Shown here piece by piece: positions 33,079 through 57,641 of a DNA stretch of 64,000 bases. The number at the start of each line of letters is the position of its first letter. The first letter of the stretch is position 1. Both the position numbers and the translations under genes were made by a program. Source of the stretch: Candidatus Sysuiplasma acidicola (lineage in GTDB: Archaea; Thermoplasmatota; Thermoplasmata; Sysuiplasmatales; Sysuiplasmataceae). The notes beneath the pieces were generated by a model that saw only the letters and a list, made by a program, of their open reading frames with translations, searched no databases and was not told the DNA's origin. Where the stretch lies: contig JAHEAA010000003.1 of NCBI GenBank assembly GCA_019721035.1, forward strand, positions 54,994-118,993, given 5' to 3'.

Positions 33079-34170
33079 ATGCGAACAACAGGCGTTTCCA
33101 TTTTCACCGGAATGGAATACAGCGTCGAGGACAATCTGCGTTATCTGGAAAAGGCATCAAGCAAGGGGTTCAAGAGAATATTCACGAGCATGCAAAGACC
33201 GGGTTCGGACCCGGCCCGCGTCAGTGTGGAAATGCCAATCGTCACGAAGAGGGTGAAGGAACTAGGCATGGAAATCGTCACAGACATTTCTCCACGCGCT
33301 CTCACAATATTCAACGCAACGCTCGATGATCTTTCGCCATTTCGAAAAGCAGGTGTCACCGCGCTTCGTCTGGACGACGGGTTTACCAACCGACAGGCGG
33401 CCGAGATAACACATAACGAAGCCGGTCTCAGGATCGAGCTGAATGGATGCCACTATTTTGATTCCGACCTCGATGAAATGCTTGCGAATGGCGCGGACGT
33501 GCGCAACCTTCAGGCCAGTTTCAACTATTATCCGCGTTTCGAGTCAGGTATATCAATGGACTTCCTGAAGCAGCAGGCGTCCGCATACTCCGGTCATGGT
33601 ATACCCCTTTTTGCGTTCGTTCACTCGTCCACACTGCATACGCGCGTTACTGTGGAATCACACAGGTATATGTCTCCGGAGAGGGCCGCAGAGGAACTTT
33701 TTGCCGTGCACGGCATCGACACTGTGCTCATCGGCGATCCAATGGCGCCTGACAGGGATCTCGACGCGATAGCCGAAACCGGTTCAAGGGATTATGTCCG
33801 GATAAGAACCATACCGTCCAGTGACGCCACTGAAGCAGAAAAACATCTGCTGTTTGCAAACGAACTGACCGCAAAGCCTGGCACCATGCTTTCGCTGCGG
33901 CACACGTACAGATTTAAGCCGGAAGAGATTCACCGGATGGTTCCTCCGCGCAACTGCACTGCCCGCGGAGAATATTCCGTGACAATTGACAATGAGCGAT
34001 ACAGGGACGGCAACAACAATCTGAAAAATTCATGCGAGCTCAATCTATGGTTGGAGAAGATGCCCGCCGATGAGCGCATCAACGTTGTAGGCACAGTCTT
34101 CGAAGAGGACAGGGAGCTTGTCAGAATGGTCAGACCATTCAGGAAGTTTAAACTCGTTCCGTTTGTCTGA
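33079..34170 (+). CDS. mupG: DUF871/MupG-like TIM-barrel glycosidase (6-phospho-N-acetylmuramidase family)
   Basis: N-terminus GVSIFTGMEYSVEDNLRYLEKASSKGFKRIFTSMQ matches the DUF871 consensus (G.S.Y.....e....Yl..a...Gf.riFTSL). Convergent with the murQ-like gene. Confidence 0.55.
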   Translation: MRTTGVSIFTGMEYSVEDNLRYLEKASSKGFKRIFTSMQRPGSDPARVSVEMPIVTKRVKELGMEIVTDISPRALTIFNATLDDLSPFRKAGVTALRLDDGFTNRQAAEITHNEAGLRIELNGCHYFDSDLDEMLANGADVRNLQASFNYYPRFESGISMDFLKQQASAYSGHGIPLFAFVHSSTLHTRVTVESHRYMSPERAAEELFAVHGIDTVLIGDPMAPDRDLDAIAETGSRDYVRIRTIPSSDATEAEKHLLFANELTAKPGTMLSLRHTYRFKPEEIHRMVPPRNCTARGEYSVTIDNERYRDGNNNLKNSCELNLWLEKMPADERINVVGTVFEEDRELVRMVRPFRKFKLVPFV

Positions 34171-34187
34171 ATCCTTCCGACAGACGA

Positions 34188-35093
34188 TCAGAGCAGGGCA
34201 TTTCTCAGATTGCCTTTAGCTTCCGAGAGCCTGGCTTCGGCCTGCTCGACGCTCACGCCCTTCATAATCATAACAGCGGCAGTTTTTATGCTCCACCCGG
34301 CTCTTTCCAGAGCGTCTGCGGAACTGCGATAGTCTGCACCGGTTATGGTTGAAAGGATGTGCACCGATCGCTCTTTCATCTTCTCATTATGCGGTTTGAG
34401 TTCAATCATCATATTGTCGTACACCCTTCCGAGTTTAACGAAAACAGCGGACGAAATCATGTTCAGGACGAGTTTTTCCGACATTCCTGCCTTCATCCTC
34501 GATGAGCCGGCTATGACTTCCGGTCCCACCAGCAGCGTTATGACGTAATCGGCATGCTCCGCTATTGCAGCATTGCTAACGTTCACCAGCGCGGCGGATG
34601 TCGCCCCTCTCTCCTTTGCCCGCTTCATTGCGCCAATGACAAAAGGGGCTTTTCCGGACGCTGCGATGCCTATTATGAAATCGTCCTTGTGGACTTTCAG
34701 GGCATTCATGCTTTTTGCGCCGCATGCTGCACAATCCTCCGCACCCTCCTTCGCCTTTGTCATGGATCGGACGCCTCCTGCAAGAATAGACACGACAGTG
34801 CCGGTGGGTAAGCCGAAGGTCGGCACACATTCCGCGGCGTCAAGGAATCCTATTCTTCCAGCCGTCCCTGCACCCACGTATATGAGTCTTCCTCCTCTTC
34901 CAATGCATCCTGCAATAGCGTCGGTTACCTTCGCTATGACAGGCAGAGCACCTGCCACAATGCCCGGAACTTTGCTGTCCTCCTCATTTATCGTTTTCAG
35001 AAGAGATAGTGTGTCAAGCATGTCCAGTCTGCGAAATTTTTCGGATATTTCTTCCGTTTCAAGATGCATATATTTGCTTTCTGATTCAGGCAT
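34188..35093 (-). CDS. murQ: N-acetylmuramic acid 6-phosphate etherase-like SIS-domain protein
   Basis: RLIYVGAGTAGRIGFLDAAECVPTFG is nearly identical to the MurQ core (GAGTSGRLGvLDAsECpPTFg). N-terminal LDMLDTLSLLKTINEEDSKVP also matches MurQ. Last gene of the minus-strand ABC operon. The start may instead be the internal Met at about 35069. Confidence 0.7.
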   Translation of the reverse strand: MPESESKYMHLETEEISEKFRRLDMLDTLSLLKTINEEDSKVPGIVAGALPVIAKVTDAIAGCIGRGGRLIYVGAGTAGRIGFLDAAECVPTFGLPTGTVVSILAGGVRSMTKAKEGAEDCAACGAKSMNALKVHKDDFIIGIAASGKAPFVIGAMKRAKERGATSAALVNVSNAAIAEHADYVITLLVGPEVIAGSSRMKAGMSEKLVLNMISSAVFVKLGRVYDNMMIELKPHNEKMKERSVHILSTITGADYRSSADALERAGWSIKTAAVMIMKGVSVEQAEARLSEAKGNLRNALL

Positions 35094-35099
35094 AGCTGA

Positions 35100-36086
35100 T
35101 CACTCGTAAAGGAAGCATGAAGCCCCGTGCCCGTCGCCGGTATCGTACATCGGCGGTTCGGCGACGCGGCACCGATCCATGACAAACCGGCATCTGGATG
35201 CGAACCTGCATCCGCTCGCCGAATAGCTCTCTTCAGCGCCGCCGCCCGCGTCGTCCAGGGTGAGGAAGGAGGATGCCCTTTCTGGATCAGGAACTGGAAC
35301 TGAATCGACGAGCAGCATGGTGTATGGATGCTTTGGCTTCCCTATTACGTCGGCGGTCTTTCCCTGCTCCACGATCCTGCCGCGGAAGAAAATCAGCATC
35401 CTGTCACCCATGAATTTCGCACTCGATATGTCATGCGTTATGAAGAGAAAGGAGGTACCGCCGTCGCGCGAGAGTTTTTTCATCCTGTTGAGCATTTCTG
35501 CTCTCAGCGAAACGTCTAGCATGGAGACAGGTTCGTCGGCAACTATGAACTGGGGTTTCAGTATCATTGCCCGGGCTATGGACACACGCTGCCTCTGTCC
35601 TCCGCTGAGCTCGCTCGGCAGCTTGTGCATGAACTGTCCCGCGGGCTTGAGTCCCATGCTTTCAAGATGCTCAGCCACCTTTTCCTCCTTATCCTTTCGT
35701 GACAGATTCTTTTCGAAAATGTTCAGCGGTTTCGACACGCTTGCAAACACCGAGAAGAGTGGATTTAGAGAGTCATACGGGTCCTGCAGGATCATCTGTA
35801 CGTTCCGCCGGAAGGAAATCATCTCCGTCTTGCTCATGTCGAAGATGTTCTTTCCGTGAAATCTGACTTCTCCTGACGTCGGTTCCAAGAGTCGAACCAT
35901 CAGCCTTCCAAGTGTTGTCTTGCCACTGCCGCTTTCTCCGACAACAGAAACTATTTCGTTCGTTCCGATATCGAACGACGCGCCGGCGACAGCCTCGACA
36001 TGTCGTCTTTTTCCCATCCTGTTCAGAAAACTCTTCGACTGGCCGAATATTTTCCGGAGGTCTGTTACTTCAACCAGTTTTTCCAT
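35100..36086 (-). CDS. Opp/Dpp-family ABC transporter ATP-binding protein (OppF-like)
   Basis: Walker A GESGSGKTT, ABC signature LSGGQRQR, and a C-terminal oligopeptide-type extension. Confidence 0.8.
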   Translation of the reverse strand: MEKLVEVTDLRKIFGQSKSFLNRMGKRRHVEAVAGASFDIGTNEIVSVVGESGSGKTTLGRLMVRLLEPTSGEVRFHGKNIFDMSKTEMISFRRNVQMILQDPYDSLNPLFSVFASVSKPLNIFEKNLSRKDKEEKVAEHLESMGLKPAGQFMHKLPSELSGGQRQRVSIARAMILKPQFIVADEPVSMLDVSLRAEMLNRMKKLSRDGGTSFLFITHDISSAKFMGDRMLIFFRGRIVEQGKTADVIGKPKHPYTMLLVDSVPVPDPERASSFLTLDDAGGGAEESYSASGCRFASRCRFVMDRCRVAEPPMYDTGDGHGASCFLYE

Positions 36087-37074
36087 TCACTGACATCTCC
36101 GCGTTATGGCACGAAACCAAATGTGCATCTCCCAGCGCACGCAATTCAGGCGTCTCTCTCGTACACAATTCTGTAGCGATATTGCATCTCGGAGCAAACG
36201 GACAACCACCGATGTCGCTCGAAAGGTCAGGCGGCGAGCCGTTTATCTCAACAAGCTCTGTCTGTCTTTCGTCGATGCGCGGTATGGTAGACATGAGCCC
36301 CCTCGTGTATGGATGAAGGGGCCTCCTGAATAGCGTCTTCACATCGCCGATTTCTACGATCGAACCGGCATACATCACTGCGACCCTGTCTGCGATTGAC
36401 GCGAGGAGTGAAATGTCATGCGTTATGAATATTACAGACAGATTGAGTTTATCTTTCGTATCCATCAGCAGTTTCAATATCTTCCTCTGCACAACGACAT
36501 CCAGCGCTGTTGTGGGTTCATCCGCCACGACAAGTTCGGGGCCGCAGACGAGCGCCATCGCTATGGCAACCCTCTGCTTCATGCCACCGGAGAGCTCATG
36601 AGGATAGTTCTTCCGTATCGAGTCGTCAAGGTGCACAAGCTCAAGATAGGACGTTATGTTGTTCTCGATTGTTTCATCGTTGAATCCATGCCAGAACATG
36701 GCATCCGCCAGCTGATCGCCTATTCTTGCCACCGGATTCAGCGAGTTCATGGATCCCTGAAAAACGACAGAGACGTGCTTCCACCTGAGTCTTCTCAGTT
36801 CCTTTTCGGACAGCTTCAGTATTTCGATGCCTTCTCCCAGTGAGCTGTCTTCCGCGTTGAACACCATCTTTTCTGCGGAGATGTCAGTCGATTTGGGAAG
36901 CAGACGCAACAGCGACATGCCGAATGTGGACTTGCCACATCCACTCTCCCCTACGAGTCCGACAACTTCTCCTCTTCTGATGGATATGGACAGATTCCTG
37001 ACAGCATGAATGGTCCTGTTCTTTGTCCTGTATCGGATGTTCAATTTCGAAACTTCAAGCAATTCCGTGTGCAA
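36070..37074 (-). CDS. Opp/Dpp-family ABC transporter ATP-binding protein (OppD-like)
   Basis: Walker A GESGCGKST, LSGGMKQR, Walker B VVADEPTTALD. Confidence 0.8.
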   Translation of the reverse strand: MHTELLEVSKLNIRYRTKNRTIHAVRNLSISIRRGEVVGLVGESGCGKSTFGMSLLRLLPKSTDISAEKMVFNAEDSSLGEGIEILKLSEKELRRLRWKHVSVVFQGSMNSLNPVARIGDQLADAMFWHGFNDETIENNITSYLELVHLDDSIRKNYPHELSGGMKQRVAIAMALVCGPELVVADEPTTALDVVVQRKILKLLMDTKDKLNLSVIFITHDISLLASIADRVAVMYAGSIVEIGDVKTLFRRPLHPYTRGLMSTIPRIDERQTELVEINGSPPDLSSDIGGCPFAPRCNIATELCTRETPELRALGDAHLVSCHNAEMSVNGKTG

Positions 37075-37965
37075 TCACCCTGTCCTCATTTCCAGTGTAG
37101 TCTCAGCTATTCCGTTTGCGAGCATGTTCAGGCCCATGCCCAGGACACCGATGGCAATGCCCGGTGGGACTATCCACCACCACGCACTCTGTATTGCGGC
37201 ATCTTCGACCTGGGCCCAGTAGAGCATTGTTCCCCAGTTGACTGAATTCACATTTCCAAGCCCGAAGAACGCCAGACCGGCCTGTGCAATTATTGCGCCG
37301 ATGACGAGAAAAATCATGTTTATGAATATTATGGGTGCCATGTTCGGAAAGATGTCCTTGAACATTATGCTCAGATTACCGGATCCGGAGAGTTTCGAAA
37401 CTGCAACATATCCCCTCTCCTTCAGCGTAAGCACCTGCGATCTCACTACCCTGGACATGAATGGCCAGGAAAGCAGCGAGAGAATCAGTATGGTGGATGT
37501 GTTTGTGGGTGGAAGATATGCGCTCAGTATGACAAGCAGGGGAAAGGCTGGTATGACAAGGAGCATGTCGACAAAACGCATCAGTACGTCATCGGTATAT
37601 TTACCGAGGTACCCCGCGGTAAGTCCTACGGAGATGCCTATGCTGCTCGAAAACAGCGCGACGAAGAAACCCACCTTCAGCGACGTCGCAGTGCCTATGA
37701 CAAACCATGAGAAAACATCCTGACCGAGGTAGTTTGTGCCCAAAATATGCCTGGCTGAAGGCGGACTCCAAGGCGCTCCCGATTGCGCCAGAGGACTGAA
37801 TGGTGCAATGAATTTTCCGAGCAGACCAAGCGCGATGAAAAACAGCACTATAGATGCACCGAGAATGAATTTCCTGTTGTGTGTGAGTGGTATCAGCGGA
37901 CGTAGCAGTCTCTTCACAAGGAAGCGTACCGGGGATTGCTGCTTCACATCTGTCGAACTGTTCAA
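37075..37965 (-). CDS. Opp/Dpp-family ABC transporter permease (OppC-like)
   Basis: Six TM helices, EAA-like loop. ATGA-type overlap with the upstream permease gene. Confidence 0.8.
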   Translation of the reverse strand: MNSSTDVKQQSPVRFLVKRLLRPLIPLTHNRKFILGASIVLFFIALGLLGKFIAPFSPLAQSGAPWSPPSARHILGTNYLGQDVFSWFVIGTATSLKVGFFVALFSSSIGISVGLTAGYLGKYTDDVLMRFVDMLLVIPAFPLLVILSAYLPPTNTSTILILSLLSWPFMSRVVRSQVLTLKERGYVAVSKLSGSGNLSIMFKDIFPNMAPIIFINMIFLVIGAIIAQAGLAFFGLGNVNSVNWGTMLYWAQVEDAAIQSAWWWIVPPGIAIGVLGMGLNMLANGIAETTLEMRTG

Positions 37966-38984
37966 ATTAGACTCACTCTCGGATCAATAATTGTATAGAT
38001 GATGTCCACAATGAAATTGGCAAGTATGACGCACAGGCTTATGATCAGGAAAATGCCTTGCATTAGCGGGTAATCTTCGCTCTGTATCGCCGAAAAGAGC
38101 GTATATCCGAGTCCTGGATAGGCAAAAAGATATTCCACCATGAGTGCGCCTGCGACAACGTATCCCAGCGCTATGCCTACGTGGGTGGTCACGGGCAGTA
38201 TGGCATTTCGGGCAGCGTATCTGTTCTTTATAACATGGTTCGGCAGTCCTTTTGCAAAGGCCGTCAGTATGTAATCTTCATGCATTACGGTTATCATGGT
38301 GTTGCGCATCTGCAGCGCATAGCCTGGCATCAGGGCTATGACGAGCGTAGATATGGGCAAAACCGCATGATACAGAACGTCCCCTAGAAACGCAAATTCA
38401 TTGTGGTATGTGACACCTTGGGATACGGCATGTGCAACTGGAAAAATCGTAATATCTACGGCGAAGAAAATCAGCAGTATAATGCCTATCCAGAAGTAAG
38501 GTATCGATGAAATCAGCATGCCTGCTGATGAAATCAGCGAGTCAGGCAGTGTTCCTTTTCTCCACGCAAGAAAAATACCGAGCGGTATGCCAAGCAGGGC
38601 GGCAAATATTGTTCCGGATCCTGCAAGAAACAGCGTCCACGGCAGTCTCTGCAGTATCACCGAAGTGACACTCTGCGGATAGTAATAGAATGAAATGCCC
38701 AGGTTGCCGTGGACAAGCTCGACAAGATATCTGTAATACTGATAGAGCAGATTCGGATTGTTCAGTCCGAACTCCTGAGTGAGCCTCTGTACCACGACCG
38801 GATTCCCTATCTGTCCGCCTCCGCCTCCAAACAGGTTCGCCATAACAGGATTGCCTGGTATTATTCTCGGAAGAAAAAAATTGAGCGTTATCGCACCGTA
38901 TGCGATGACCGCCATGTTTACGAGTCTTCTCAGCAGATACCGTTTGCCGATCAATCTTACCGTCTCCTTCTGCGTAAGCGGCAT
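37962..38984 (-). CDS. Opp/Dpp-family ABC transporter permease (OppB-like)
   Basis: Polytopic BPD-transporter permease with the conserved EDY...A(K/R)G(L) region. Confidence 0.8.
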   Translation of the reverse strand: MPLTQKETVRLIGKRYLLRRLVNMAVIAYGAITLNFFLPRIIPGNPVMANLFGGGGGQIGNPVVVQRLTQEFGLNNPNLLYQYYRYLVELVHGNLGISFYYYPQSVTSVILQRLPWTLFLAGSGTIFAALLGIPLGIFLAWRKGTLPDSLISSAGMLISSIPYFWIGIILLIFFAVDITIFPVAHAVSQGVTYHNEFAFLGDVLYHAVLPISTLVIALMPGYALQMRNTMITVMHEDYILTAFAKGLPNHVIKNRYAARNAILPVTTHVGIALGYVVAGALMVEYLFAYPGLGYTLFSAIQSEDYPLMQGIFLIISLCVILANFIVDIIYTIIDPRVSLI

Positions 38985-39032
38985 AAATTTATGGGTAAGA
39001 GGTTTGCGGCGCCATCCGACAACCGGGCAAGA

Positions 39033-40859
39033 TTACTTGTTATGCCTTTCCTTCAGCCTCTTCCTTCTGACATAGAATATCGCAGCTGCGACACCCCCGA
39101 GAATCAGTACCACGATTCCTCCTCCTATGTACGGGAGGTAATTGGGAGCAGTTTCGTTTACGTATTGCAGAACGTCGATGTGTTCAACGCTGATCATCCA
39201 TGCAATGTTGTAACTTGGTGTGTTATCTCTGATTGTCTGATTGTTGTAGCTGAAGAATGTAGGGGGGTCCGATGTCATTGCCACTGGAACCTGTGCCGCA
39301 ATGATCTGCTGCACACTGTCCAGCAGCTGCTGAACCTTGGTGCTGTTGGATGTGGATGCAGCTTGTGTGAGCAGACTATTGACTGTCGTGTTGTTGTAGC
39401 GTTCCACGTTCCACCCGTGGGTCCAGACGAATTGGCCCATGGGTGCTGAGGACTTGTTGGAGAACAGAGAATAGAGCACGCTCCAAGCATTTGGCGCATA
39501 GCCTGTGTATCCGAAGTATGTGAGTTGATACTTGCCGTAGCCTGTGTTCGAGTTCCACTGTGCAAACGTATTTGCCACATATGTTGTCTTAATTCCGAAT
39601 GCAGTCAGGTTGTTGGCTATCACGTTTCCGGCAGTAACCCAGTCTGCGAGCGGAGGCTCAATCAAAGTGACAGTTACCTGTGTGCCGTTGGGGTAGTACC
39701 ACTGACCTCCTTTCTGAGTAAATCCACCGTCCTTCATCATAATCGCTGCCTCTGTGAGGTTGTAGTGGTAGAATGGCAGTCCTGCGGGTATCTGATTCTT
39801 GTAAAGTGCCGGAAGCGCTCCGTACGAACCTGTGAGTCCCGCTCCTGCAAGAGCGAGCAGGTTCAAGTTCGTCTTGTTTATGACATATGCTACAGCCTTT
39901 CTTGCATATGTGTTGTTAAATGGCGCAATTGCGTTGTTCATCCAAGCGAAGAATTCGTATGTTGAGGGAGCACTTACGCTTCGTATATAGGGTATTTTTG
40001 CGAAAAGTGCTCTGTCTGTGTAGGGCCCCCAGAATGCATCAATCGTCTTGCTTTCAAGCGCAGCAGTGGCATCTGAAGTGGTCTTGAAATATTCCCATAC
40101 CATTTTTGCGTAAGAGGGCGGTCCGTTGAAGAAATGCTTGTTTGCACTGAACACTGTTCCAGCAGTTGTAGACATGCTGTTCAGTATCAGCGGGCCGTCG
40201 GTTATCAGGTTCGTCGCCTGATACGTCCCAGATGTAATGTTTGTCGCGTAATTCGTGAAACTTGAGAGATTGGAAGTGTACGGGCTGTTGCCCCATGCTG
40301 CCGGAATGATAGGCTCTGTTCCTATTTCATAAATCAGCGGGCTGTAGAACGTTTTCATTTTGAATACAACCGTATAGTTGTTTAAGGCAACTACACTTTG
40401 GATGTAATTATTGAATGAGAAAAAGTCAATGCTTGGTGTATTGATCAGCGATTGAAATGTATATGTGACATCTTTGGCAGTAACAGACTGTCCGTTGGAC
40501 CACGTCGCATTGTGGACTAGATTAAATGTGAACGTGAGGCCGTTGTTTGTCACGTTGTATGACTTTGCGAGCCACGGTATGACTCCGCCGCTCGTTCCCG
40601 GGTATAGGAGTGAACTGTACAGCAGAGCATCTATGTCTCCTGCCATGCTTGTGGCTGTGAGCGGATTCAGATTGGTGAGTGTGCCCTGGATAGAACCGAA
40701 GATGAATGTACCGTTCGGATTTATCTTGGCTACTTGTTTTGCGGAAGCAACACCTACGAAGCTGCCGCCGAATACACTACCGATCAGCAGTAAAGCGGAA
40801 GCGACGGAAAACGCGATCAATGCCCTTCGCATGAAAAATATTCTTTTTCTCTCAGTCAT
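39033..40859 (-). CDS. family-5 solute-binding protein (Opp/Dpp-like) with C-terminal TM anchor
   Basis: 608 aa. N-terminal signal/anchor, Asn/Thr-rich body, C-terminal hydrophobic helix plus basic tail (GGIVVLILGGVAAAIFYVRRKRLKERHNK), typical of archaeal membrane-anchored SBPs. Confidence 0.75.
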   Translation of the reverse strand: MTERKRIFFMRRALIAFSVASALLLIGSVFGGSFVGVASAKQVAKINPNGTFIFGSIQGTLTNLNPLTATSMAGDIDALLYSSLLYPGTSGGVIPWLAKSYNVTNNGLTFTFNLVHNATWSNGQSVTAKDVTYTFQSLINTPSIDFFSFNNYIQSVVALNNYTVVFKMKTFYSPLIYEIGTEPIIPAAWGNSPYTSNLSSFTNYATNITSGTYQATNLITDGPLILNSMSTTAGTVFSANKHFFNGPPSYAKMVWEYFKTTSDATAALESKTIDAFWGPYTDRALFAKIPYIRSVSAPSTYEFFAWMNNAIAPFNNTYARKAVAYVINKTNLNLLALAGAGLTGSYGALPALYKNQIPAGLPFYHYNLTEAAIMMKDGGFTQKGGQWYYPNGTQVTVTLIEPPLADWVTAGNVIANNLTAFGIKTTYVANTFAQWNSNTGYGKYQLTYFGYTGYAPNAWSVLYSLFSNKSSAPMGQFVWTHGWNVERYNNTTVNSLLTQAASTSNSTKVQQLLDSVQQIIAAQVPVAMTSDPPTFFSYNNQTIRDNTPSYNIAWMISVEHIDVLQYVNETAPNYLPYIGGGIVVLILGGVAAAIFYVRRKRLKERHNK

Positions 40860-42865: not shown

Positions 42866-42872
42866 ATCTGAG

Positions 42873-49665: not shown

Positions 49666-49779
49666 GTTATCTGATTACGGTCACAACACACATCTACATT
49701 ATTTGATCGCAGACTGAGGCTTGTCTTTCAGTTGCCGATCATCGGTCAATCACTGTCTCCTGTCCGCACGCATGTGCAT

Positions 49780-51390
49780 TCAGATTTTCACGGGCTGGCG
49801 TCCACGTGCGCGTACCGCGCCAGCGAGAACGCCCACAGATGCGAGAAGTGCATCGTGCCTGTAACTGTACGCCGCAATGTAAGGTATTTCGCGAATAAAT
49901 GCCGCCTCGTACGGCGTGCCTGTGCCCACGACCGCCACTCTTCCTCTCATACCTGATGCCAGCTTCCTGGCAAACAGCATTTGCGGCGGTGTGTCGTTCA
50001 GCACATGACCGGACAGTGCATCGTTCGCAAATACAATCACCGCATCTCCTTCTCTTGCTGCCGCCGCAATACGGTCTACCTCTCCAGCAATGCTATACTT
50101 CCCGATACCTCTCGGCAGTTGCAGACTCATGCCAGGACGAAGACCCCATTCGTTCAGTGCAGGAGTGACCGGGCTCTGATTCCTGCGTGCCTGTTTTTCC
50201 TCCAGGAATCTGTTTCTGCTGAAGAAAACAGTATGCACCTTTCCTGCTCCGGGAGCAGGAAGGCGGAAATCCTGCAGACTGTTGATTTCCGTCACTGTTG
50301 AAAATGTTGCTTCCACCGTCACATGTTTTCGTACCGCTATCGACCAAGGTGCCGCCTTACCGCCAATGCCTGCGAGTGTTCTCCTCAATTCGGTAAATCT
50401 AGCGAGACTTCTGGCAATTCTGCTGCGTTTCACGCCGCCTGACAAGAGAGATGCCCTCAGGCCGTTATACAGTTCGATGTATCTTTCCGGCACGGCGCAT
50501 TCGAGCACGTCCACGCCCGCTTCAACGGCCATCACTGCAGCCTTCTCCATGTTGAAATTGTCTGCGACTGCCGCCATTGACAGCGAATCTGTCAGTATCA
50601 GTCCGTCATAATTCATCCTGTCGCGCAACAGGTCTGTGACAACTTTCCTCGAGAGGGAGGCCGGAACGGGAAGGCCGTTATTCTCAATGCGCGGAAAATG
50701 TATGTGTGAAATCATAATGGAGTCGGCATTGTTCTTTATTGCGGCACGATATGGCAGAAGATCTATTTTTTTCAGTTCCTGTATGCCTTTGTCTATTTCA
50801 GGCAGCGTGAGGTGCGAGTCGGACTTGCTGGCACCATGGCCCGGAAAATGTTTGACGCATGAGAGAACGCCCGCATCCCTGAGTCCTTCCATCGCATAGA
50901 CTGTGTGCCTTGAGACGTGCTCAGGATCATCTCCAAACGATCTGACGCCGATGATGGGATTCGTAGGTTCTGTGTTGACATCGGCAGTCGGTGCAAGATT
51001 CCATTGTATGCCGCACGAACGGAGCTCTTCCCCCATGGCCCTGTATGAGGCGTATGTGGATTCCCTGCTGTCGCATGCACCCAGCGCCATATTGCCGGGG
51101 CTGTTGGCAATGTCGTCAATCCTGCTGATCCATCCACCTTCCTGTGTTATGCCGATCAGGGGCGCATGGTCCTGCGGAATCCCGACGTTGCTGCAAATAA
51201 CTTTCACTCTCTTCACAAACGCTTTAATGTCGCGGGAACTGGAAACGTTCGCCCCTTGAATCACGATACTTCCGGGTCTAATCTCTTCAATCAGTTTCTC
51301 CCACCTGGCTGTGTTGTCCTGCGGCAACGATATCTGGAAAAGCTGGCCCATGTTCTCTTCTAAATCGAAACGTTTCATGTTTCTTCTCAA
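49780..51390 (-). CDS. nagZ: GH3 beta-N-acetylglucosaminidase, NagZ type
   Basis: KHFPGHGASKSDSHL carries the NagZ-specific KHFPGHGx4D(S/T)H Asp-His dyad motif. Nucleophile region LILTDSLSM resembles NagZ (I)SDDLSM. Two-domain GH3, 536 aa. Confidence 0.7.
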   Translation of the reverse strand: MRRNMKRFDLEENMGQLFQISLPQDNTARWEKLIEEIRPGSIVIQGANVSSSRDIKAFVKRVKVICSNVGIPQDHAPLIGITQEGGWISRIDDIANSPGNMALGACDSRESTYASYRAMGEELRSCGIQWNLAPTADVNTEPTNPIIGVRSFGDDPEHVSRHTVYAMEGLRDAGVLSCVKHFPGHGASKSDSHLTLPEIDKGIQELKKIDLLPYRAAIKNNADSIMISHIHFPRIENNGLPVPASLSRKVVTDLLRDRMNYDGLILTDSLSMAAVADNFNMEKAAVMAVEAGVDVLECAVPERYIELYNGLRASLLSGGVKRSRIARSLARFTELRRTLAGIGGKAAPWSIAVRKHVTVEATFSTVTEINSLQDFRLPAPGAGKVHTVFFSRNRFLEEKQARRNQSPVTPALNEWGLRPGMSLQLPRGIGKYSIAGEVDRIAAAAREGDAVIVFANDALSGHVLNDTPPQMLFARKLASGMRGRVAVVGTGTPYEAAFIREIPYIAAYSYRHDALLASVGVLAGAVRARGRQPVKI

Positions 51391-51485
51391 CAGCCGTGCA
51401 AGTATGTCAAAGAAAGCATAATGCTTGCGATTACTGCCGCGGGAAAGTCTTATTAGATATAGTCAATTCAGGCCAGTTGAACGAA

Positions 51486-53411
51486 ATGAGCAATGAGAAA
51501 AAACTGTTTCTGGCCGGAATAGACGGTATGTCGCCCAAAATAATGGAACGCTTTCTTTCCGAAGGAAGGATGCCCAACATTGCCAGGCTGATTTCAAACG
51601 GAGTGTATTCAAAGGCTGTTTCCAGCCTTCCGGTCTTCACGCCCACAAACTGGGCAACCATTTCCACCGGTGCCACCTCCGGAACACACGGTGTTTTTCT
51701 GTGGGGCTCGCATTCCGCCGGTGAGAGTCTGGAGGAGGACCATTTCGACGAGTGCATGACGTCAACTGTATGCAAGGCGGAATATCTCTGGGAAACTGCC
51801 CGGAGGCATGGCAGGAAATCCGTCCTGCTCAACTATATCGGATATCCTTCAGATCAGGATGGAATTTATCACGTCGACTGGTTTTACGGACCGAACAGAG
51901 ATTATTTCGGGCTCGCTACATCCTGTGTATACAACATACCGGTGAAAGTCAAGGGTAAGGATTCAAAATGGGAAAAGTGGACCGAGCCGTGGAACCAGGA
52001 CGGCTCTGTGTCCATAGATATTCCGTTCAGGAACAATCACGGAAAATACACCTTCCGCCTGAAAAAGCCCGCAGGAGTATCGGTTGAGTCCTGCGTACGC
52101 GCAACACTGGAGTACGAGGGTGGAAAGGTTGAGTTCAATGAAGGCGAATGGACGGACTGGCTGCGCATAAAGTGCGGTGACGGCAATGCAACAGTGAGAT
52201 GGAAGATTCTCCGCCGAGGTGCTTCGAATGATGGCATTTCCATGCGTATTTACAGAAGCAGCATGTACCTGGATACCGATTTCTGCTCGCCGGCGGAAGT
52301 GGGGCTGGAACTGTCCTCAAGTATAGGTCCATATATCAACGATGATATTGGCAAACTGTATGTTGCCGGCCTCGTAGATCGTGAAACATTCCTTGATGAG
52401 GCAAGGTACAAGATCCGCTGGATAGCGAGATGCTTCGAATTCATGGGCGACCGCTACGAGGCGTCTCTCTTTTTCCTTCACTGGCATTACGTTGATACGC
52501 TGCAGCATTCGTATCTCGGCTTTGCCGACAGTACGGGTGGAGACTATGAGGGGGGAGAGAGCGAGATGCACGCGATCGAAATGCTTCGTGAAGGTTACGC
52601 ACTGGCGGACGAGCTCGTAGGCAAGCTCATGGATATTGCCGACGAAGAGGATGCATTCCTCGTCGTGTCTGATCACGGAAACATACCAAACCACCACCGT
52701 GTCTCACTTTACAATCTCTTCATGGAAAAAGGATGGACAAAGATTGATGTGGTGGACGGTGTCCCCAGGGTCGATATACCATCTTCAAGAGTTTTCGTAA
52801 ATCTGTCTCATGTTTATCTGAACGTTAGGGGAAGGGATCCGGAAGGGGTTGTGGAACCAGCGGAATACAACAGCTTCAGGGAGGAGGTCAGATCGGCTAT
52901 TCTGTCAATCAGGGATCCGGACAACGGTCTTTCCCCTTTCGCCTCTGTGCTGCGTAGAGAGGAAGCCGACGTCGCAGGCCTGTGGGGCAAAGGAATCGGA
53001 GACATAGTGCTTGTGTTCGACAGAGGTTACGTCTGGAGCGGAAGTGAAGTCGCCTCGCTGGGAGAGAAGAGAATCGTTTGGAAAACAGGCGGCGCGAATC
53101 ATGGTCCTCAGCCCCCGACTGCTGAGACAGAGTTTTCGTCGAATTTCGCAACATTTGTGGCTTCGGCGCCGGGATTGAAGAAAGGGTACGGCAGGAAGCA
53201 CGCCATCTCTCTGACTGATGTCGTTCCTATTGCATGCAAGCTGCTCGACATGGAAACGACCGCACAGTGTGAGGGTGCTGTCCCCAAGGACATGTTTGAA
53301 GGCGGGGCAGCCAGGCTCAGTCATACCACGGCTAAAGCAAAGTATCCCGTGCGGACCAGGGTCATAGTGGCGCCGAAGGGCTTCAAGGGCGACGTGACGG
53401 ACGAAGACTGA
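51486..53411 (+). CDS. alkaline-phosphatase-superfamily phosphodiesterase / nucleotide pyrophosphatase-like protein
   Basis: LFLAGIDGMSP...LPVFTPTNWATISTGATSGTHG resembles type-I phosphodiesterase/NPP family blocks (GIDG; Thr nucleophile in the PT.T.PN..TG-like motif). Start set at ATG 51486 (MSNEKK), trimming a Cys-rich 30-aa ORF-track extension. Confidence 0.55.
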   Translation: MSNEKKLFLAGIDGMSPKIMERFLSEGRMPNIARLISNGVYSKAVSSLPVFTPTNWATISTGATSGTHGVFLWGSHSAGESLEEDHFDECMTSTVCKAEYLWETARRHGRKSVLLNYIGYPSDQDGIYHVDWFYGPNRDYFGLATSCVYNIPVKVKGKDSKWEKWTEPWNQDGSVSIDIPFRNNHGKYTFRLKKPAGVSVESCVRATLEYEGGKVEFNEGEWTDWLRIKCGDGNATVRWKILRRGASNDGISMRIYRSSMYLDTDFCSPAEVGLELSSSIGPYINDDIGKLYVAGLVDRETFLDEARYKIRWIARCFEFMGDRYEASLFFLHWHYVDTLQHSYLGFADSTGGDYEGGESEMHAIEMLREGYALADELVGKLMDIADEEDAFLVVSDHGNIPNHHRVSLYNLFMEKGWTKIDVVDGVPRVDIPSSRVFVNLSHVYLNVRGRDPEGVVEPAEYNSFREEVRSAILSIRDPDNGLSPFASVLRREEADVAGLWGKGIGDIVLVFDRGYVWSGSEVASLGEKRIVWKTGGANHGPQPPTAETEFSSNFATFVASAPGLKKGYGRKHAISLTDVVPIACKLLDMETTAQCEGAVPKDMFEGGAARLSHTTAKAKYPVRTRVIVAPKGFKGDVTDED

Positions 53412-53426
53412 CTGGTGTATCTGCCC

Positions 53427-54575
53427 TCATTCATCCTGCTTTGCCGCGGCCATGATAGTCTGTGTCGAATATCCGGTAGATGTTGAAGCGTAGCTCTGCA
53501 GCGGTCCCCAGATGGTGTTGTCCACTGCGCCGAGTCTCCACATCGCTACTTGATGTATTCCGAGGCTTGAGAGGTAATCCAGCCTCAGCTGCATTGCATG
53601 GCTATTGACGTAATAATACTCGTACGCGGTTCCGACTTCACCAGGATACACAATCCTGTAGTACGGTTCGCCATAGAATGCGCCGAAGTGCTTGGTCACA
53701 TTCGCATGCTGCAGCAGCGCGTCGTGGACTATCGACTTCACTTGTCCGAACATGTGCGCCTTTATCGTCTTGACTATGCTGAACGGGAACTGAGCAGTCG
53801 TGCTGGTGTTGACAATGAAGCCAAACCCGTAATCCGGCAGCGCAACAGAGAGCTTGTTCAGCGGTATGTGTGTTATCGAATAGTTCACGACCTGCTCGAA
53901 ATCGCCTATCGAGAAATAATCCATCACTATGAGTTTCGATACGCCTGTTCCGGCAATCGCACTCCAGTTGTATGCACCGCCGTACGAGGTTGGCGAAAAA
54001 TGCTGGAGGACCGCGCTTCCCGGCAGATCAACCGACAGTGAAAGGCCGGACTTTTCCAGCGCGGAAGAGAAGTTGGCAATAAAACCCGTCAATGCAATCG
54101 AGTCCTTGTAGTATGGAACTTCAAAGTCCATGTTGTATCCAGCGTAGCTCCTGCTCACTGCCGTCTGCAGAGCATCGCTTATGAATTTCGACTGCACCGT
54201 GGTGTTTGTGAAGAGTTTATGCATCGCAGCCTTGTTGGACGAAACGATCATCGGATAGACGGGTAGACCGAATTTCTCGGCGAGCTTTTTTGGCGACACG
54301 AGGCCGGCTCTGGAAAATGAATAGTTTGTAGGACCGAGATAGTATTGCTCATATGAGAGTGATGTGAACTGTTCGTGGTGCCTCACAATCATGTTCGTTG
54401 AATTGTTGTAAGCTCCGCAGAACTGACAAACCCACGGCATGAAGTTAAACGATGCGCGGGTTCCTGCGTTTCCGTTCGCAGTCTGCTGTTGCCCGGAAGC
54501 CGAAACAAGCGCCGGAGACAACAGCAGCACGGAGACTGCGACAATAATTGCTATGCTGTGTTTCCTGTTATGCAT
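53427..54575 (-). CDS. secreted GH18-like glycosyl hydrolase (signal peptide, heavily sequon-decorated)
   Basis: N-terminal signal peptide (IAIIVAVSVLLLSPALVSA). AGYNMDFE aligns to the GH18 DGxDxDWE catalytic motif with the DxE retained. At least 8 NxS/T sequons. Confidence 0.4.
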   Translation of the reverse strand: MHNRKHSIAIIVAVSVLLLSPALVSASGQQQTANGNAGTRASFNFMPWVCQFCGAYNNSTNMIVRHHEQFTSLSYEQYYLGPTNYSFSRAGLVSPKKLAEKFGLPVYPMIVSSNKAAMHKLFTNTTVQSKFISDALQTAVSRSYAGYNMDFEVPYYKDSIALTGFIANFSSALEKSGLSLSVDLPGSAVLQHFSPTSYGGAYNWSAIAGTGVSKLIVMDYFSIGDFEQVVNYSITHIPLNKLSVALPDYGFGFIVNTSTTAQFPFSIVKTIKAHMFGQVKSIVHDALLQHANVTKHFGAFYGEPYYRIVYPGEVGTAYEYYYVNSHAMQLRLDYLSSLGIHQVAMWRLGAVDNTIWGPLQSYASTSTGYSTQTIMAAAKQDE

Positions 54576-54638
54576 GTGTCAATCACTTTTTGGCACGATA
54601 CTCATTCTCATATTTGAGAATGGAGGTCAGGCGATGTG

Positions 54639-56102
54639 TCAGTTCAGCAGTCTGCCCAGGAAATCGAAATGTGGCGGTGTCTCCATCCTGTCATGCGCCT
54701 GCAGCGAGTCGATCATGCGCCGCATTGTCAGTTCAAGGTCGTCTCCAACATTTCTTGTGTTCTCGTCCGCGTTCGGCAGCAGGTTGTTCTTCTCGGCAGC
54801 ATCCTCTGTGAGGTTGTAGAGTTCCGGACGTCTGTGGTCGACGATGCTCCTGCGATCCGCCGATGACATTCTTTCTGTTATGTCGCACGCAAGGTACCTC
54901 GTAGCCTCCTCCTCAAGATATGTGATATACTTCCAGTTGCCGTCCGTTACCGACCATGACTTTCTGAAATAGCCACTCAGTACGTAATCTCTCAGCTTAT
55001 CCTTCTCTCCGCTCAGTAGCGGGAGCATGCTCTCGCCATGTGTAGGGGGCAGAGCCTCTCCTCCGTGTTTCATCTTTTCATGTATGTTGAAGAAATCCAG
55101 CACAGTCGGCATGATATCACACGTCTGGACCATTCCCCTGACGCTTCTGCCGTCCATCGCTCCCTCCGGATGGTGAATGAGCATCGGTATCCGGATTAGT
55201 TCCTCATACGGCCACGGCCTCGCCTTCATAACCATTCCGTGCTCTCCGAGCGGTTCACCATGGTCAGATAGCCATATGACCATCGTATCAGACATCAGTC
55301 CTTTCTTTTCGACAGCATCGAACACTTTTCCTATCCATTTGTCTACCAGAGTAATTTCGCCCGCATAGAGGGAGGAGACGCGTTTCAGTTCCTCTTCGGT
55401 GAGATAGCCGTCGACCGGTCCGTATACAGGAGATATCACGTCCGCCACGCCCTTCGTCTTCCCGTACATACTCCAGTATGGCTCAGGGGGATCCCACGGT
55501 TCATGCGGATCGAAGCTGTCAACCCAGAGGAAAAAATCGCCATTGTCCGATTTTTCATCAATCCATTCCACGGTCTTGCCGGCTACCTGTGCGACGAAAT
55601 GGTTGCTCTCGTCCTGCCAGTCGTAGCGTGATATGTTTCTGAAATACTGTTCAAGCCTTCTGCCGTGCGTAGGGTCGGATTTATGCTCCTTGTCGAATCT
55701 GCTTAAGTCAGGTATCTTCACATCACCCGTCTCAAACAAATCCGACTCCTGGCCCCTTACCCACTGCACTTCATCAAAGCCTCTGTCGAATCCCATGCCG
55801 GGTTTGTGCATGTGGTATGTGTCGGCTATCAGTGCAGTTCTGATACCCTTGCCCCACAGCGTTTCGGCCAGAAGCACATCCTGCCTTTCGAGTCCCTGCC
55901 ATCCCCTGAAAGGCAGCGTGTAACGACCGGTGAACAGTGCAGTCCTCACGGGGATGGTCGCAAGTCCTTCCGGATACGCATGTGTAACTTTCATTGATGT
56001 ACGGCTGAATCTGTCGAAATTATCAGTCTTTATCCATCTGTTTCCATAGCAGGATACGAAATCTGCCCTGAGGCTGTCAGTGACTATTACAATGGTATTC
56101 AT
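54639..56102 (-). CDS. sulfatase-family (alkaline phosphatase superfamily) hydrolase with Thr at the nucleophile position
   Basis: N-terminal IVIVTDSLRAD and LATIPVRTALFTG align to the sulfatase C/S-x-P-x-R signature, but with Thr (T-I-P-V-R) in place of the formylglycine-forming Cys/Ser. No signal peptide. Confidence 0.65.
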   Translation of the reverse strand: MNTIVIVTDSLRADFVSCYGNRWIKTDNFDRFSRTSMKVTHAYPEGLATIPVRTALFTGRYTLPFRGWQGLERQDVLLAETLWGKGIRTALIADTYHMHKPGMGFDRGFDEVQWVRGQESDLFETGDVKIPDLSRFDKEHKSDPTHGRRLEQYFRNISRYDWQDESNHFVAQVAGKTVEWIDEKSDNGDFFLWVDSFDPHEPWDPPEPYWSMYGKTKGVADVISPVYGPVDGYLTEEELKRVSSLYAGEITLVDKWIGKVFDAVEKKGLMSDTMVIWLSDHGEPLGEHGMVMKARPWPYEELIRIPMLIHHPEGAMDGRSVRGMVQTCDIMPTVLDFFNIHEKMKHGGEALPPTHGESMLPLLSGEKDKLRDYVLSGYFRKSWSVTDGNWKYITYLEEEATRYLACDITERMSSADRRSIVDHRRPELYNLTEDAAEKNNLLPNADENTRNVGDDLELTMRRMIDSLQAHDRMETPPHFDFLGRLLN

Positions 56103-56183
56103 TTGCCGGCACCTGTGCAGTATTGCGCAAGCATGGCACGGTAATAATTGTAACGATTAAAACCGCTGGCTGATACGCAGACA

Positions 56184-57641
56184 TCAATCCTCGTCGGTTA
56201 CAGTGAAACTTCTCGATACGCCGCCCGGCATTGGGTTCCGCAGTATGGATATCAACGTTGCAATTACAAGCAGGATCGCTGAAATTTCAAACGCAAAGCC
56301 CTGGCCAGTGAGATACTCACCTGCCAGTCTGGCTGGCAGCCTCCCGACTATATCGCCGACAAACAGGTGGTAGACATATGCTGCCGGAATGACGCTAGTT
56401 GCCGCCACCAGTGAGAGAGCAAAACTCAGCACCATGCCAGTGCTTCTGAACGTGTTCATTATGCCGGATGCAACGCCGTACTTGTTGCCCGGCGTCGCAG
56501 ACATTATTGCGCTTGTGTTTGCCGGCCAGAAGAGTCCTCCTCCGACGCCGTACAGTCCCTCCACGATTGCAACGAAGAGAAGAGGCGTCGTAAGGCTCAG
56601 CCTGCTCAGTATGATCAGAACAATTGCCTGCACTGCGAGACCGGATGATGCCACGACCCTCGATCCTATCCTGTCGGTGAGCACACCTGCGAAGGGACCC
56701 ACAATCGATGTCATGACGGCCATCGGTATGATGAGGTATGCCGCAGTGAGAATCGGAAGTCCGTCTATTCCCTCGAAATAGAACAGCAGCAGGAAGTTGG
56801 CGCTGAAAACCGCTATCGACTGAAGTATTGCGCTTATGATCGAGAAAGTGAACACCCTGTTTCTGAACATGCCAAAATCGACGATAGGATCATTGCTGTA
56901 TTTCGCTTCCCAAATGCCGAATAATGCGAAAAACAGCGGTGAAGACATCAGTGCGGTTATCGCAACAGGATCCGTCCACCCGTGAAGAAGGCCCCAGGTT
57001 ATGCCGAACAGGAGAGCTATCAGGCCGAGTGTGAACAGAACGGCAGCCTGAATATCGAATGTCTCAACTTTCCTGCTTCCGGTTTCCTTTGACTCCTTCA
57101 ATGTCCTGTATGCCCACAGTGTTCCGAATATGCCTATCGGCACATTGATGAAGAATATCAGTCTCCATGTTGTAAAAGCGATTATCACACCGCCCAGGAC
57201 GATGCCCAGGACGGAGCCTGAACCCCAGACTATTGAGTTGAGACCGAACGCCCTTCCCCTCTCAGACGGGGGAAAAGCCTCCGAAACTATCGCGAACGAA
57301 TTGGCTATGAGCATCGCAGCTCCTATGCCCTGAACGGCGCGGAAGAGTACAAGCTCGGTTCCGGTAAGCGCGGCACCGGAAAGCCCTGAACCAATTGTGA
57401 AGACAACGAAACCGAGGTTGTACATCTTCTTCCTGCCGTATATGTCGGCAATCCTTCCCAGACTCAGGACAAGCGCAGTGCTCATCAGTATGTACGCTAT
57501 GATCACCCATACTATGGTGACGAAATTCGACTTCAGGCTGGTCGCTATGGGAAAAAGGGCGAGTATGACGATCGTGCTGTCAACCGCCGACATCGCTACA
57601 CCTATTGAAGTGACGGAGAGAGCTTTCCACTTGTAGTCCAT
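56184..57641 (-). CDS. MFS transporter (DHA2-like, ~14 TM)
   Basis: 485 aa, highly hydrophobic, MFS motif region GRIADIYGRKKM. Confidence 0.8.
   Translation of the reverse strand: MDYKWKALSVTSIGVAMSAVDSTIVILALFPIATSLKSNFVTIVWVIIAYILMSTALVLSLGRIADIYGRKKMYNLGFVVFTIGSGLSGAALTGTELVLFRAVQGIGAAMLIANSFAIVSEAFPPSERGRAFGLNSIVWGSGSVLGIVLGGVIIAFTTWRLIFFINVPIGIFGTLWAYRTLKESKETGSRKVETFDIQAAVLFTLGLIALLFGITWGLLHGWTDPVAITALMSSPLFFALFGIWEAKYSNDPIVDFGMFRNRVFTFSIISAILQSIAVFSANFLLLFYFEGIDGLPILTAAYLIIPMAVMTSIVGPFAGVLTDRIGSRVVASSGLAVQAIVLIILSRLSLTTPLLFVAIVEGLYGVGGGLFWPANTSAIMSATPGNKYGVASGIMNTFRSTGMVLSFALSLVAATSVIPAAYVYHLFVGDIVGRLPARLAGEYLTGQGFAFEISAILLVIATLISILRNPMPGGVSRSFTVTDED

Follow-up and report, generated by a model that had tools for sequence, protein, structure and literature searches.

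A putative island for scavenging bacterial peptidoglycan in the wall-less archaeon Candidatus Sysuiplasma acidicola

Why would an archaeon that makes no murein hold, side by side, genes of the kind with which bacteria break down cell-wall fragments? The question is raised by a locus in Candidatus Sysuiplasma acidicola (Thermoplasmata), a wall-less acid-mine archaeon, of which we have analyzed a 64-kb stretch of DNA (the window, whose coordinates are used throughout unless a related locus is named). An earlier note, made from the letters of this DNA alone, had placed a set of such genes at 33079-57641 and proposed that they serve the uptake and catabolism of bacterial wall debris by a murein-less member of the Thermoplasmata. 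Our analysis supports this proposal, with related islands found to carry AnmK, a BadF-type kinase, NagA, NagB and NamZ in addition. We consider it quite likely that the locus is a catabolic island with which a murein-less archaeon feeds on bacterial peptidoglycan and that part of it, at least MurQ and a PBP4B/AmiE-like hydrolase, was acquired from bacteria. The whole case is computational; on this footing the island most likely imports and degrades bacterial cell-wall fragments, and nutritional scavenging is the best reading of the purpose of murein breakdown here.

Family assignments were made by comparing open reading frames (ORFs) with Pfam and NCBIfam profiles, Pfam being run on the larger ORFs only. 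Every gene that had been named earlier was found at its coordinates and in its family, and the profiles upheld the MurQ, MupG/DUF871-like, GH3-NagZ (GH, glycoside hydrolase), beta-lactamase and SBP_bac_5 assignments alike. Four outcomes that would speak against the proposal (a non-etherase SIS protein in place of MurQ, an unrelated TIM barrel in place of MupG, a GH3 of beta-glucosidase type, a murein-bearing host) were looked for, and none was found. As to the extent of the locus, its genes stand as described but its start does not, since the true start is at 32111 with an extra gene, g320. MurQ-based catabolism of N-acetylmuramic acid (MurNAc) has long been known in bacteria; as far as the literature was searched, the archaeal multi-operon version is apparently undescribed, in keeping with the earlier note, with no account of MurNAc catabolism in archaea found in the literature covered, to which the paper describing the order (PMC8552897), which might mention the genes, does not belong.

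The SIS-family protein at 34188-35093 (minus strand), which had been read as a MurNAc-6-phosphate (MurNAc-6P) etherase, reaches equivalog level as MurQ, with 307.3 bits against a cut-off of 302 for TIGR00274 and 353 bits against 168 for the subfamily model NF003915, and matches solved MurQ structures (PDB 4s12 at 8.5e-75). In alignment with 4s12 and 4lzj, DAAEC with E88 and EGAED with E119 fall on the DASEC and EGAED of the solved proteins, and we take these two residues to be the counterparts of the catalytic Glu83 and Glu114 of E. coli MurQ. The protein is predicted to convert MurNAc-6P into N-acetylglucosamine (GlcNAc)-6-phosphate (GlcNAc-6P) and D-lactate. Its gene starts 6 nucleotides (nt) past an ATPase gene of the ATP-binding cassette (ABC) importer ABC1 and is the final gene of that minus-strand operon, as had been noted.

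Among species-representative genomes, the closest MurQ loci are those of Thermoplasmata archaeon WH2.bin25 (75% identity) and Ca. Sysuiplasma superficiale (73%). After the archaeal copies, the next relatives are bacterial, at 44-50% identity, and no bacterial copy above 50% was present among 6274 matches. In a neighbor-joining tree (corrected p-distances, 200 bootstraps), the ABC1-linked archaeal MurQ proteins were monophyletic in 200 of the 200 bootstraps, while a second MurQ of the related locus L044 (related loci are given L numbers) branches apart, among Bacillota sequences; as these two branch separately, at least two acquisitions of MurQ are suggested. Since the MurQ of the window falls, at 44-50% identity, inside the diversity of bacterial MurQ proteins, acquisition from bacteria is suggested as well.

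Adjoining murQ, and convergent with it across 17 nt, lies a gene on the plus strand at 33079-34170 for a protein of the GH170/MupG family of 6-phospho-beta-hexosaminidases, a linkage repeated in five archaeal lineages (L001, L002, L035, L048 and L049). It had been called MupG/DUF871-like, and rightly so: both Pfam domains score above their gathering cut-offs (MupG_N, PF19200, 3.6e-58, 197.4 bits vs. 24; MupG_C, PF05913, 5.7e-12, 46.3 bits vs. 24.4), and phmmer matches the two solved family members 1x7f and 2p0o at 1e-33. We predict from family and context that its substrate here is MurNAc-6P-GlcNAc. No relative of the archaeal MupG was found among JGI metagenome contigs, whether queried with the single protein or with an alignment.

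It is at this pair of genes that one rival explanation enters. The locus might be a general one for GlcNAc glycans such as chitooligosaccharides or N-glycan cores, in which chitobiose would enter through the ABC transporters and (phospho)chitobiose be split by GH3 and GH170; a secreted GH18-like enzyme would then be an endo-GlcNAc-ase or a chitinase, and a different sugar phosphate would be the substrate of the MurQ-like protein. The GH170 family does include ChbE, genetically tied to diacetylchitobiose use (PMC12791066), and the paper on MupG doubted a murein role in archaea (PMC6262408). Chitin use, on the other hand, needs no etherase, and the MurQ here passes the equivalog cut-off, retains its catalytic residues and is the tightest conserved partner of ABC1. 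With the evidence on the binding proteins, the secreted enzyme and the sister islands given below, we deem this explanation unlikely.

The next two enzymes of the peptidoglycan-feeding proposal lie in a second minus-strand operon, the existence of which had been claimed before and is upheld by the spacing of its genes: PHP and Blac overlap by 16 nt, and the GH3 gene lies 114 nt upstream. The GH3 protein (49780-51378, minus strand, in an ORF extending to 51390, with 51378 rather than 51390 as the probable true start) is a cytoplasmic, two-domain beta-N-acetylglucosaminidase of the NagZ type (PF00933, 1.2e-75). The motif KHFPGHGx4DSH of the Asp-His dyad, which the earlier note had singled out, is present as KHFPGHGASKSDSH at residues 180-193, and TDSLSM at 267, in the region of the nucleophile Asp, aligns with TDALNM of B. 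subtilis YbbD. Its top relatives in the PDB are all beta-N-acetylglucosaminidases (6k5j, 6.7e-63; B. subtilis YbbD/NagZ, 8e-59), and none points to a beta-glucosidase. The protein falls below the NCBIfam equivalog for NagZ, NF003740 (155.8 bits vs. a cut-off of 207), a model of 340 positions, as long as one GH3 domain; the archaeal protein has two domains, like YbbD and 6k5j. Orthologues lie within the same island in L001 (66% identity) and L048 (54%).

Blac (46712-47815, minus strand; PF00144, 5.9e-48) is a cytoplasmic serine hydrolase of the beta-lactamase fold with the motifs S79-I-T-K (SxxK), Y164-S-D (Yx[ND]) and HTG at 315 and 318 (HxG); by eye, the same three motifs are found in the translated homologues of Pontibacillus and L044. 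The earlier assignment to the SxxK hydrolases of the beta-lactamase family holds, but the likeness to AmpH does not, the protein being closer to PBP4B/AmiE. Its top NCBIfam model is PBP4B, yet at 93.4 bits against an equivalog cut-off of 385, and the same model comes out best for all the murQ-linked homologues examined (three archaeal copies and those of L040, Pontibacillus and an Erysipelotrichaceae genome). We treat Blac as a relative of the PBP4B subgroup and not as PBP4B itself, which E. coli encodes as yfeW within its murQP operon, and predict for Blac either MurNAc-L-Ala amidase activity or D-peptidase activity on stem peptides. Of 31 bacterial MurQ loci, 7 have a Blac homologue and 15 a GH3 homologue no more than 10 kb from murQ; in L040, the Blac homologue adjoins murQ, and the Blac-GH3 pair of Pontibacillus is arranged like amiE-nagZ in the murQ operon of B. 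subtilis.

The third gene of this operon, PHP (47800-49665, minus strand; PF12228, NF038032), encodes a DUF3604/CehA-McbA PHP-type metallohydrolase with C-terminal beta-sandwich domains. It is always paired with Blac, the pair being kept in L044 and L046. The protein has no sequence relative in the PDB, and its fold, though modeled with confidence (AlphaFold2, pLDDT 91.9), was uninformative about function, as the Foldseek matches in the PDB were noise, bar a weak match to a PHP domain. In L047 (5692-10642), a Firmicutes metagenome-assembled genome (MAG), a DUF3604 gene separates the two permease genes of a sugar ABC transporter of the CUT1 type; because of this position inside a sugar ABC operon, we suggest that the DUF3604 family acts on imported carbohydrate derivatives. 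In L046, a gene of the PNGase A family (peptide N-glycanase; 1-1801, plus strand) lies 8 kb from the PHP-Blac pair.

Uptake would fall to two paralogous importers of the Opp/Dpp type, which had been read from the sequence as Opp-family importers; each is complete in its Pfam domains, with one SBP_bac_5 binding protein, two BPD_transp_1 permeases and two ATPases with the oligo_HPY extension. ABC1 (35100-40859, minus strand) comprises the membrane-anchored binding protein SBP1 (39033-40859), permeases at 37962-38984 and 37075-37965 and ATPases at 36070-37074 and 35100-36086. ABC2 (41096-46708, plus strand) comprises SBP2 (41096-42865), permeases at 42873-43865 and 43862-44755 and ATPases at 44752-45729 and about 45710-46708, the true start of the second ATPase probably being 45710. 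Both binding proteins have a signal-like N-terminus and a C-terminal transmembrane anchor, which we take to be a typical archaeal feature of binding proteins; apart from the GH18-like g382, they are the only proteins with hydrophobic signal-like N-termini, and the remaining enzymes look cytoplasmic. The SBP1-ABC1-MurQ operon is kept in L001, L002, L034-L039 and L049, with ABC1 always coupled to murQ. ABC2 forms a single operon PHP-Blac-SBP2-ABC2 in L044 (67-69% identity) and is found as ABC2-SBP2-GH3 in L048, listed at 72-83% identity. Solved relatives were uninformative about the ligands of SBP1 and SBP2, since binders of nickel, peptides, chitooligosaccharides, cellobiose, mannosides and murein peptides score alike. 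That chitooligosaccharide, cellobiose and mannoside binders match about as well as peptide binders is a point in favor of a GlcNAc-glycan locus, and so is the import of oligosaccharides by Opp/Dpp-type systems in archaea.

The protein that would act outside the cell, g382 (53427-54575, minus strand), bears on the same rival in the opposite sense. It is the secreted GH18-like enzyme mentioned before, an assignment sustained by its signal-like N-terminus and its relatives, though g382 itself has no Pfam match. Its orthologue in L034 (49% identity) matches GH18 at E 1.5e-6 with 28.5 bits against a gathering cut-off of 29.6, 35 of its 40 aligned relatives are GH18 proteins, and the catalytic DxE (D150-x-E152) is invariant among them. 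An exhaustive search turned up just two close relatives, followed by many distant ones. Several relatives are fused to PG_binding_1/2, LysM, SH3, SLH, CWB2 or Peptidase_S13 (DD-carboxypeptidase) modules. It is peptidoglycan-binding and not chitin-binding modules that these relatives carry, and the pattern fits wall-active GH18 enzymes better than chitinases. We predict g382 to be an extracellular N-acetylglucosaminidase that frees wall fragments.

Two further hydrolases are of the alkaline-phosphatase superfamily, as described earlier. The first, Phosphodiest (51486-53411, plus strand, in an ORF from 51396, with 51486 as the probable true start), is a cytoplasmic NPP/PhnA-like enzyme (PF01663, 1e-33) with Thr in an FTPTN motif and is a predicted phosphodiesterase; orthologues at 65-67% identity adjoin the murQ/mupG genes in L035 and L048. 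The second, a cytoplasmic protein of the sulfatase fold (54639-56102, minus strand; PF00884, 1.4e-36), reads T49-I-P-V-R where S1 sulfatases have C/S-x-P-x-R, with Thr opposite the formylglycine-forming Cys of PDB 4upl. Because Thr replaces Cys/Ser and because the nearest solved relatives belong to the phosphonate-monoester-hydrolase/arylsulfatase group, it is probably a phospho(di)esterase and not a sulfatase. Orthologues at 65-78% identity lie inside the island in L037 and L048, and the Thr is kept in that of L037 (410-1933). The TIPVR Thr, common to two lineages, may mark an uncharacterized phosphoesterase branch of the sulfatase family.

The extra gene at the start of the locus, g320 (32111-33073, plus strand), has no Pfam or NCBIfam match. 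Its AlphaFold2 model (pLDDT 93.7) is a cytoplasmic five-bladed beta-propeller resembling glycoside hydrolases/phosphorylases, with GH130, GH117 and GH43 proteins as top Foldseek matches in the PDB at a TM score of about 0.6; this fold rules it out as the missing kinase. It ends 5 nt before mupG, with which it is probably co-transcribed, and adjoins mupG in L001, L002, L048 and L049. The 974 homologues are mostly bacterial and lie in sugar-utilization loci. The family, of some 320 residues and without a Pfam model, is common in Actinomycetota, Chloroflexota and Armatimonadota and occurs in sugar ABC loci as well; in a Thermocatellispora locus, the g320 homologue stands beside a Pfam-less gene of about 315 residues that may be a paralogue. 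At the other end, the transporter of the major facilitator superfamily (MFS; 56184-57641, minus strand) that the earlier note had counted in is present, but its membership did not hold up: it is of the DHA2 efflux type (TIGR00711 efflux_EmrB, 209.7 bits), for which reason we set it aside as a sugar importer, is not found in any related island and probably lies outside the system.

At least five further lineages of Thermoplasmatota have the island, with MurQ at 55-75% identity, the carriers being Ca. S. superficiale, Thermoplasmata WH2.bin25, L034-L039, L044-L046, L048 and L049. Given conservation in several lineages at 55-90% protein identity, the clustering is not due to chance. WH2.bin25 shares its gene order with the window through the Lhr helicase flank, at 84-93% identity. 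Two modules can be told apart. Module 1 consists of SBP1-ABC1-MurQ together with g320-MupG, Phosphodiest, the Thr-containing 'sulfatase' and g382, and is found in a second Thermoplasmatota clade (L034-L039; MurQ 56%, SBP1 66%, MupG 62%, Phosphodiest 65%, 'sulfatase' 65% and g382 49% identity) as well as in L049. Module 2 consists of PHP-Blac, GH3 and SBP2-ABC2. In L048, ABC2-SBP2-GH3 stands beside Phosphodiest, the 'sulfatase', g320-MupG and MurQ. Transposases (DDE_Tnp_1, IS66, rve/IS21) flank SBP1-ABC1-MurQ in L034 (2455-4029 and 13312-13572) and L035 (11912-13840), and contigs of the second clade with the same MurQ protein differ in their neighbors, which hints that the module is mobile. In L001 (Ca. 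S. superficiale), a 394-residue ORF (2404-3588, plus strand) without a counterpart in the window lies between GH3 and SBP1 and has a weak match, below the cut-off, to Amidase_6 ('putative amidase'; E 4.6e-4).

Several sister islands hold more of a murein pathway than the window does. L048 has, in addition, a gene of the MR_MLE epimerase family adjoining SH3-NlpC/P60, a BadF/BadG-type kinase, a second GH3, NagA, a second beta-lactamase-like gene, a second MurQ and AnmK; in L049, a BadF-type kinase, NagA and NamZ directly adjoin g320-MupG and MurQ; L044 adds NagB, AnmK, MurQ, NlpC/P60 and NagA, of which NagA and NagB are above their equivalog cut-offs. We take MR_MLE beside SH3-NlpC/P60 to be the ykfB/ykfC murein-peptide gene arrangement of B. 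subtilis and the BadF/BadG-type kinases to be of the family of MurK. The sister islands appear from their gene families to hold a near-complete murein catabolic set, with the BadF-type kinase and AnmK as candidates for the phosphorylation step. To our knowledge, anhydro-MurNAc and substrates of the YkfB/YkfC type derive from murein only, and AnmK, NamZ and the YkfB/YkfC-like and PBP4B-like enzymes would have no role in chitin use, which argues further against a GlcNAc-glycan locus.

The sister islands bear likewise on a second rival, that the island recycles not murein but an endogenous archaeal surface glycan or exopolymer with lactyl-ether, phosphodiester or sulfate substituents. The two alkaline-phosphatase-superfamily enzymes, PHP and the beta-propeller are conserved though bacterial murein breakdown needs none of them, and no MurR-type regulator was found among the Pfam-scanned genes of the window, both of which would suit such a role. 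We know, however, of no MurNAc-like sugar in the Thermoplasmata, AnmK and the murein-peptide enzymes of the sister islands point to bacterial wall products, and the nesting of MurQ in bacterial diversity (44-50% identity) suggests acquisition from bacteria; we hold this rival to be very improbable.

Is the window archaeal at all? Were it a bacterial contig mis-binned into an archaeal genome, the locus would be ordinary bacterial wall recycling, and many island genes do have bacterial relatives at 40-50% identity, and the lysyl-tRNA synthetase on the flank is a class II enzyme, the bacterial type. Against this stand a DUF835 protein in the same 64 kb, binding proteins with a C-terminal anchor, presumably an archaeal trait, the absence of murein synthesis genes there, synteny of the island and its flanks (Lhr helicase, cyclase) at 84-93% with an independently assembled Thermoplasmata MAG, three independently labeled archaeal records that carry the island and the lack of any bacterial MurQ above 50% identity among the 6274 matches. 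The surroundings are archaeal, as had been supposed: the PHP protein is 100% identical to MBX8634903.1 of a Candidatus Sysuiplasma acidicola/Thermoplasmata archaeon MAG. Mis-binning is, in our estimate, extremely remote.

From family membership and gene context, we postulate how peptidoglycan feeding would proceed. The secreted GH18-like glycosidase would loosen wall glycan outside the cell, where the two membrane-anchored Opp/Dpp-type binding proteins would catch fragments for the two ABC importers to take in. ABC1 may import the sugar part, because it is always in an operon with murQ, and ABC2 peptide-bearing fragments, because in relatives it shares an operon with the PHP and Blac genes. 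In the cytoplasm, the NagZ-type GH3 would strip terminal GlcNAc and the PBP4B/AmiE-like hydrolase remove or trim the stem peptide. MurNAc or MurNAc-GlcNAc would then be phosphorylated at C6 by a kinase outside the window, of which the BadF-type, MurK-like proteins and AnmK of the sisters may be examples; GH170 would split MurNAc-6P-GlcNAc, MurQ would turn MurNAc-6P into GlcNAc-6P and D-lactate, and NagA and NagB, present in sister islands, would feed the product into glycolysis.

Several points weigh against this proposal. The kinase, NagA and NagB are absent from the 64-kb window, and the pathway as seen here is incomplete. The BadF-type kinase, AnmK, NagA, NagB and NamZ of related loci gave no tblastn match in the window, and because these extras have no homologue there, the host's kinase and NagA/NagB must be elsewhere in the genome or absent. 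The earlier note had itself seen no MurNAc kinase or phosphotransferase system (PTS) in the window, and we agree, with none found by Pfam in the larger ORFs and no kinase by tblastn with the BadF-type kinase and AnmK. The two GH170 enzymes studied, MupG by biochemistry (PMC6262408) and ChbE by genetics (PMC12791066), both use PTS-phosphorylated disaccharides, and archaea are without a PTS (PMC6262408; PMC12791066); no PTS gene was found in the window or any related island, where the uptake genes are of the ABC type. Phosphorylation of the substrate by a PTS on uptake does not apply here, which speaks against an identical pathway and not against membership in the family. The describers of MupG thought that archaeal MupG-like proteins probably act otherwise (PMC6262408). 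In addition, sequence gives no ligand assignment for SBP1 or SBP2; g320, PHP, Phosphodiest and the Thr-'sulfatase' are conserved yet have no place in known bacterial pathways; and the archaeal origin of L044, L048 and L049 is one that we infer because of 50-83% identity to window proteins and C-terminally anchored binding proteins.

These otherwise unplaced enzymes invite a variant of the proposal, which we put forward as an improbable one: the island may be suited to Gram-positive walls that still carry phosphodiester-linked secondary polymers. The two Thr-containing enzymes of the alkaline-phosphatase superfamily, perhaps with PHP, would cut the sugar-1-phosphate-6-MurNAc linkage of teichoic acids, MurNAc-6P-GlcNAc would arise without kinase or PTS and go straight to GH170 and MurQ, and the GH130-like beta-propeller would split the linkage unit, N-acetylmannosamine (ManNAc)-beta-1,4-GlcNAc. 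If true, this would explain why a 6-phospho-glycosidase family persists without a PTS and why at least three lineages keep, along with murQ, enzymes for which there would otherwise be no need.

Some features of the window lie apart from these arguments. A DUF835 protein of 1351 residues (4399-8454, minus strand) with two GAF domains and a C-terminal DUF835 is probably a sensor, unrelated to the locus. A small ORF at 10895-11359 (plus strand) has a PD-(D/E)XK/Cas4-like nuclease domain, with no CRISPR or cas genes nearby among the ORFs scanned. At 24050-27117 (plus strand), 5 kb upstream of the island, a glucose-dehydrogenase-type gene lies beside a GH15 glucoamylase-type gene, and this pair suggests a wider sugar-catabolic neighborhood. 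The flanking lysyl-tRNA ligase (58247-59749, minus strand) matches TIGR00499, the class II bacterial type, with 622.7 bits; class I is the usual archaeal form. No tRNA genes were detected in the 64 kb, and no k-mer of 8-10 nt was common to at least three of the seven promoter-side intergenic regions.

Few pools of bacterial necromass are as large as peptidoglycan, the breakdown of which has hitherto been ascribed to bacteria and bacterivorous eukaryotes. If the peptidoglycan-feeding proposal is true, archaea join the consumers of the bacterial cell wall, in acid mine drainage archaea and bacteria are tied by a concrete nutritional connection, and archaea have reassembled a whole bacterial pathway around ABC importers of archaeal type. 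The island also offers handles on a PTS-free GH170, on a new glycosidase-like family of beta-propellers, and on DUF3604 and a Thr 'sulfatase' tied to a defined class of substrate.

How does the island compare with known systems? The murQ-murR-murP-amiE-nagZ-namZ operon of B. subtilis serves muropeptide rescue (PMC8054146). The archaeal island shares with it MurQ, a two-domain NagZ-type GH3 and an AmiE/PBP4B-like enzyme, and L049, a sister island, has NamZ too. B. subtilis secretes NagZ, AmiE and NamZ and takes up monosaccharides by the PTS, whereas the archaeal GH3 and AmiE-like proteins have no signal peptide and uptake is of the Opp/Dpp type; the archaeal island is without MurR and PTS and has the GH170, beta-propeller, PHP and alkaline-phosphatase-superfamily genes in addition. 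In the mupG-murQ-murP-murR operon of S. aureus (PMC6262408), a GH170 gene adjoins murQ as it does here, and extracellular cleavage of the glucosaminidase type would yield MurNAc-GlcNAc, from which the MupG substrate derives. In S. aureus, the PTS protein MurP supplies the phosphate, in contrast to the archaeal window, which has no PTS.

PTS-free uptake followed by an ATP-dependent kinase and MurQ brings the proposal closer to two other bacteria. Tannerella forsythia has a kinase-dependent MurNAc route, with MurK and MurT genes in an operon with murQ. A Paenibacillus locus (L017) is predicted to encode NagZ, NamZ, an ABC importer, MurR, a BadF-type kinase and MurQ, and is by its gene content a bacterial precedent for ABC uptake with kinase and MurQ. 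BadF-type kinases are present in L048 and L049, but the archaeal BadF proteins share only about 30% identity with that of Paenibacillus, the Paenibacillus transporter is of the CUT1 type (SBP_bac_1, MalK-like ATPase) and the archaeal ones of the Opp/Dpp type, and the kinase is absent from the archaeal window.

The recycling of Gram-negative bacteria (Opp/MppA or AmpG, cytoplasmic NagZ, AmpD, AnmK, MurQ) is similar in that whole muropeptides are imported and degraded in the cytoplasm, in its Opp-family importer and, in L044 and L048, in AnmK with MurQ. Its purpose is re-use of the wall and its amidase is of the AmpD type, whereas for the archaeon we propose nutrition and an amidase of the beta-lactamase fold; the archaeal GH3 is of the two-domain Gram-positive type, unlike Gram-negative NagZ. 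Finally, murein-less organisms that keep MurQ-based catabolism for foreign wall have precedents in the wall-less Spiroplasma, which has murP/murQ (PMC5726471), and in ciliates and ants with transferred MurQ/AnmK (PMC13198582, PMC13320244). Those are bacteria or eukaryotes with one or a few such genes, in contrast to the archaeal lineage, whose island spans several operons and includes transporters of its own and additional enzymes.

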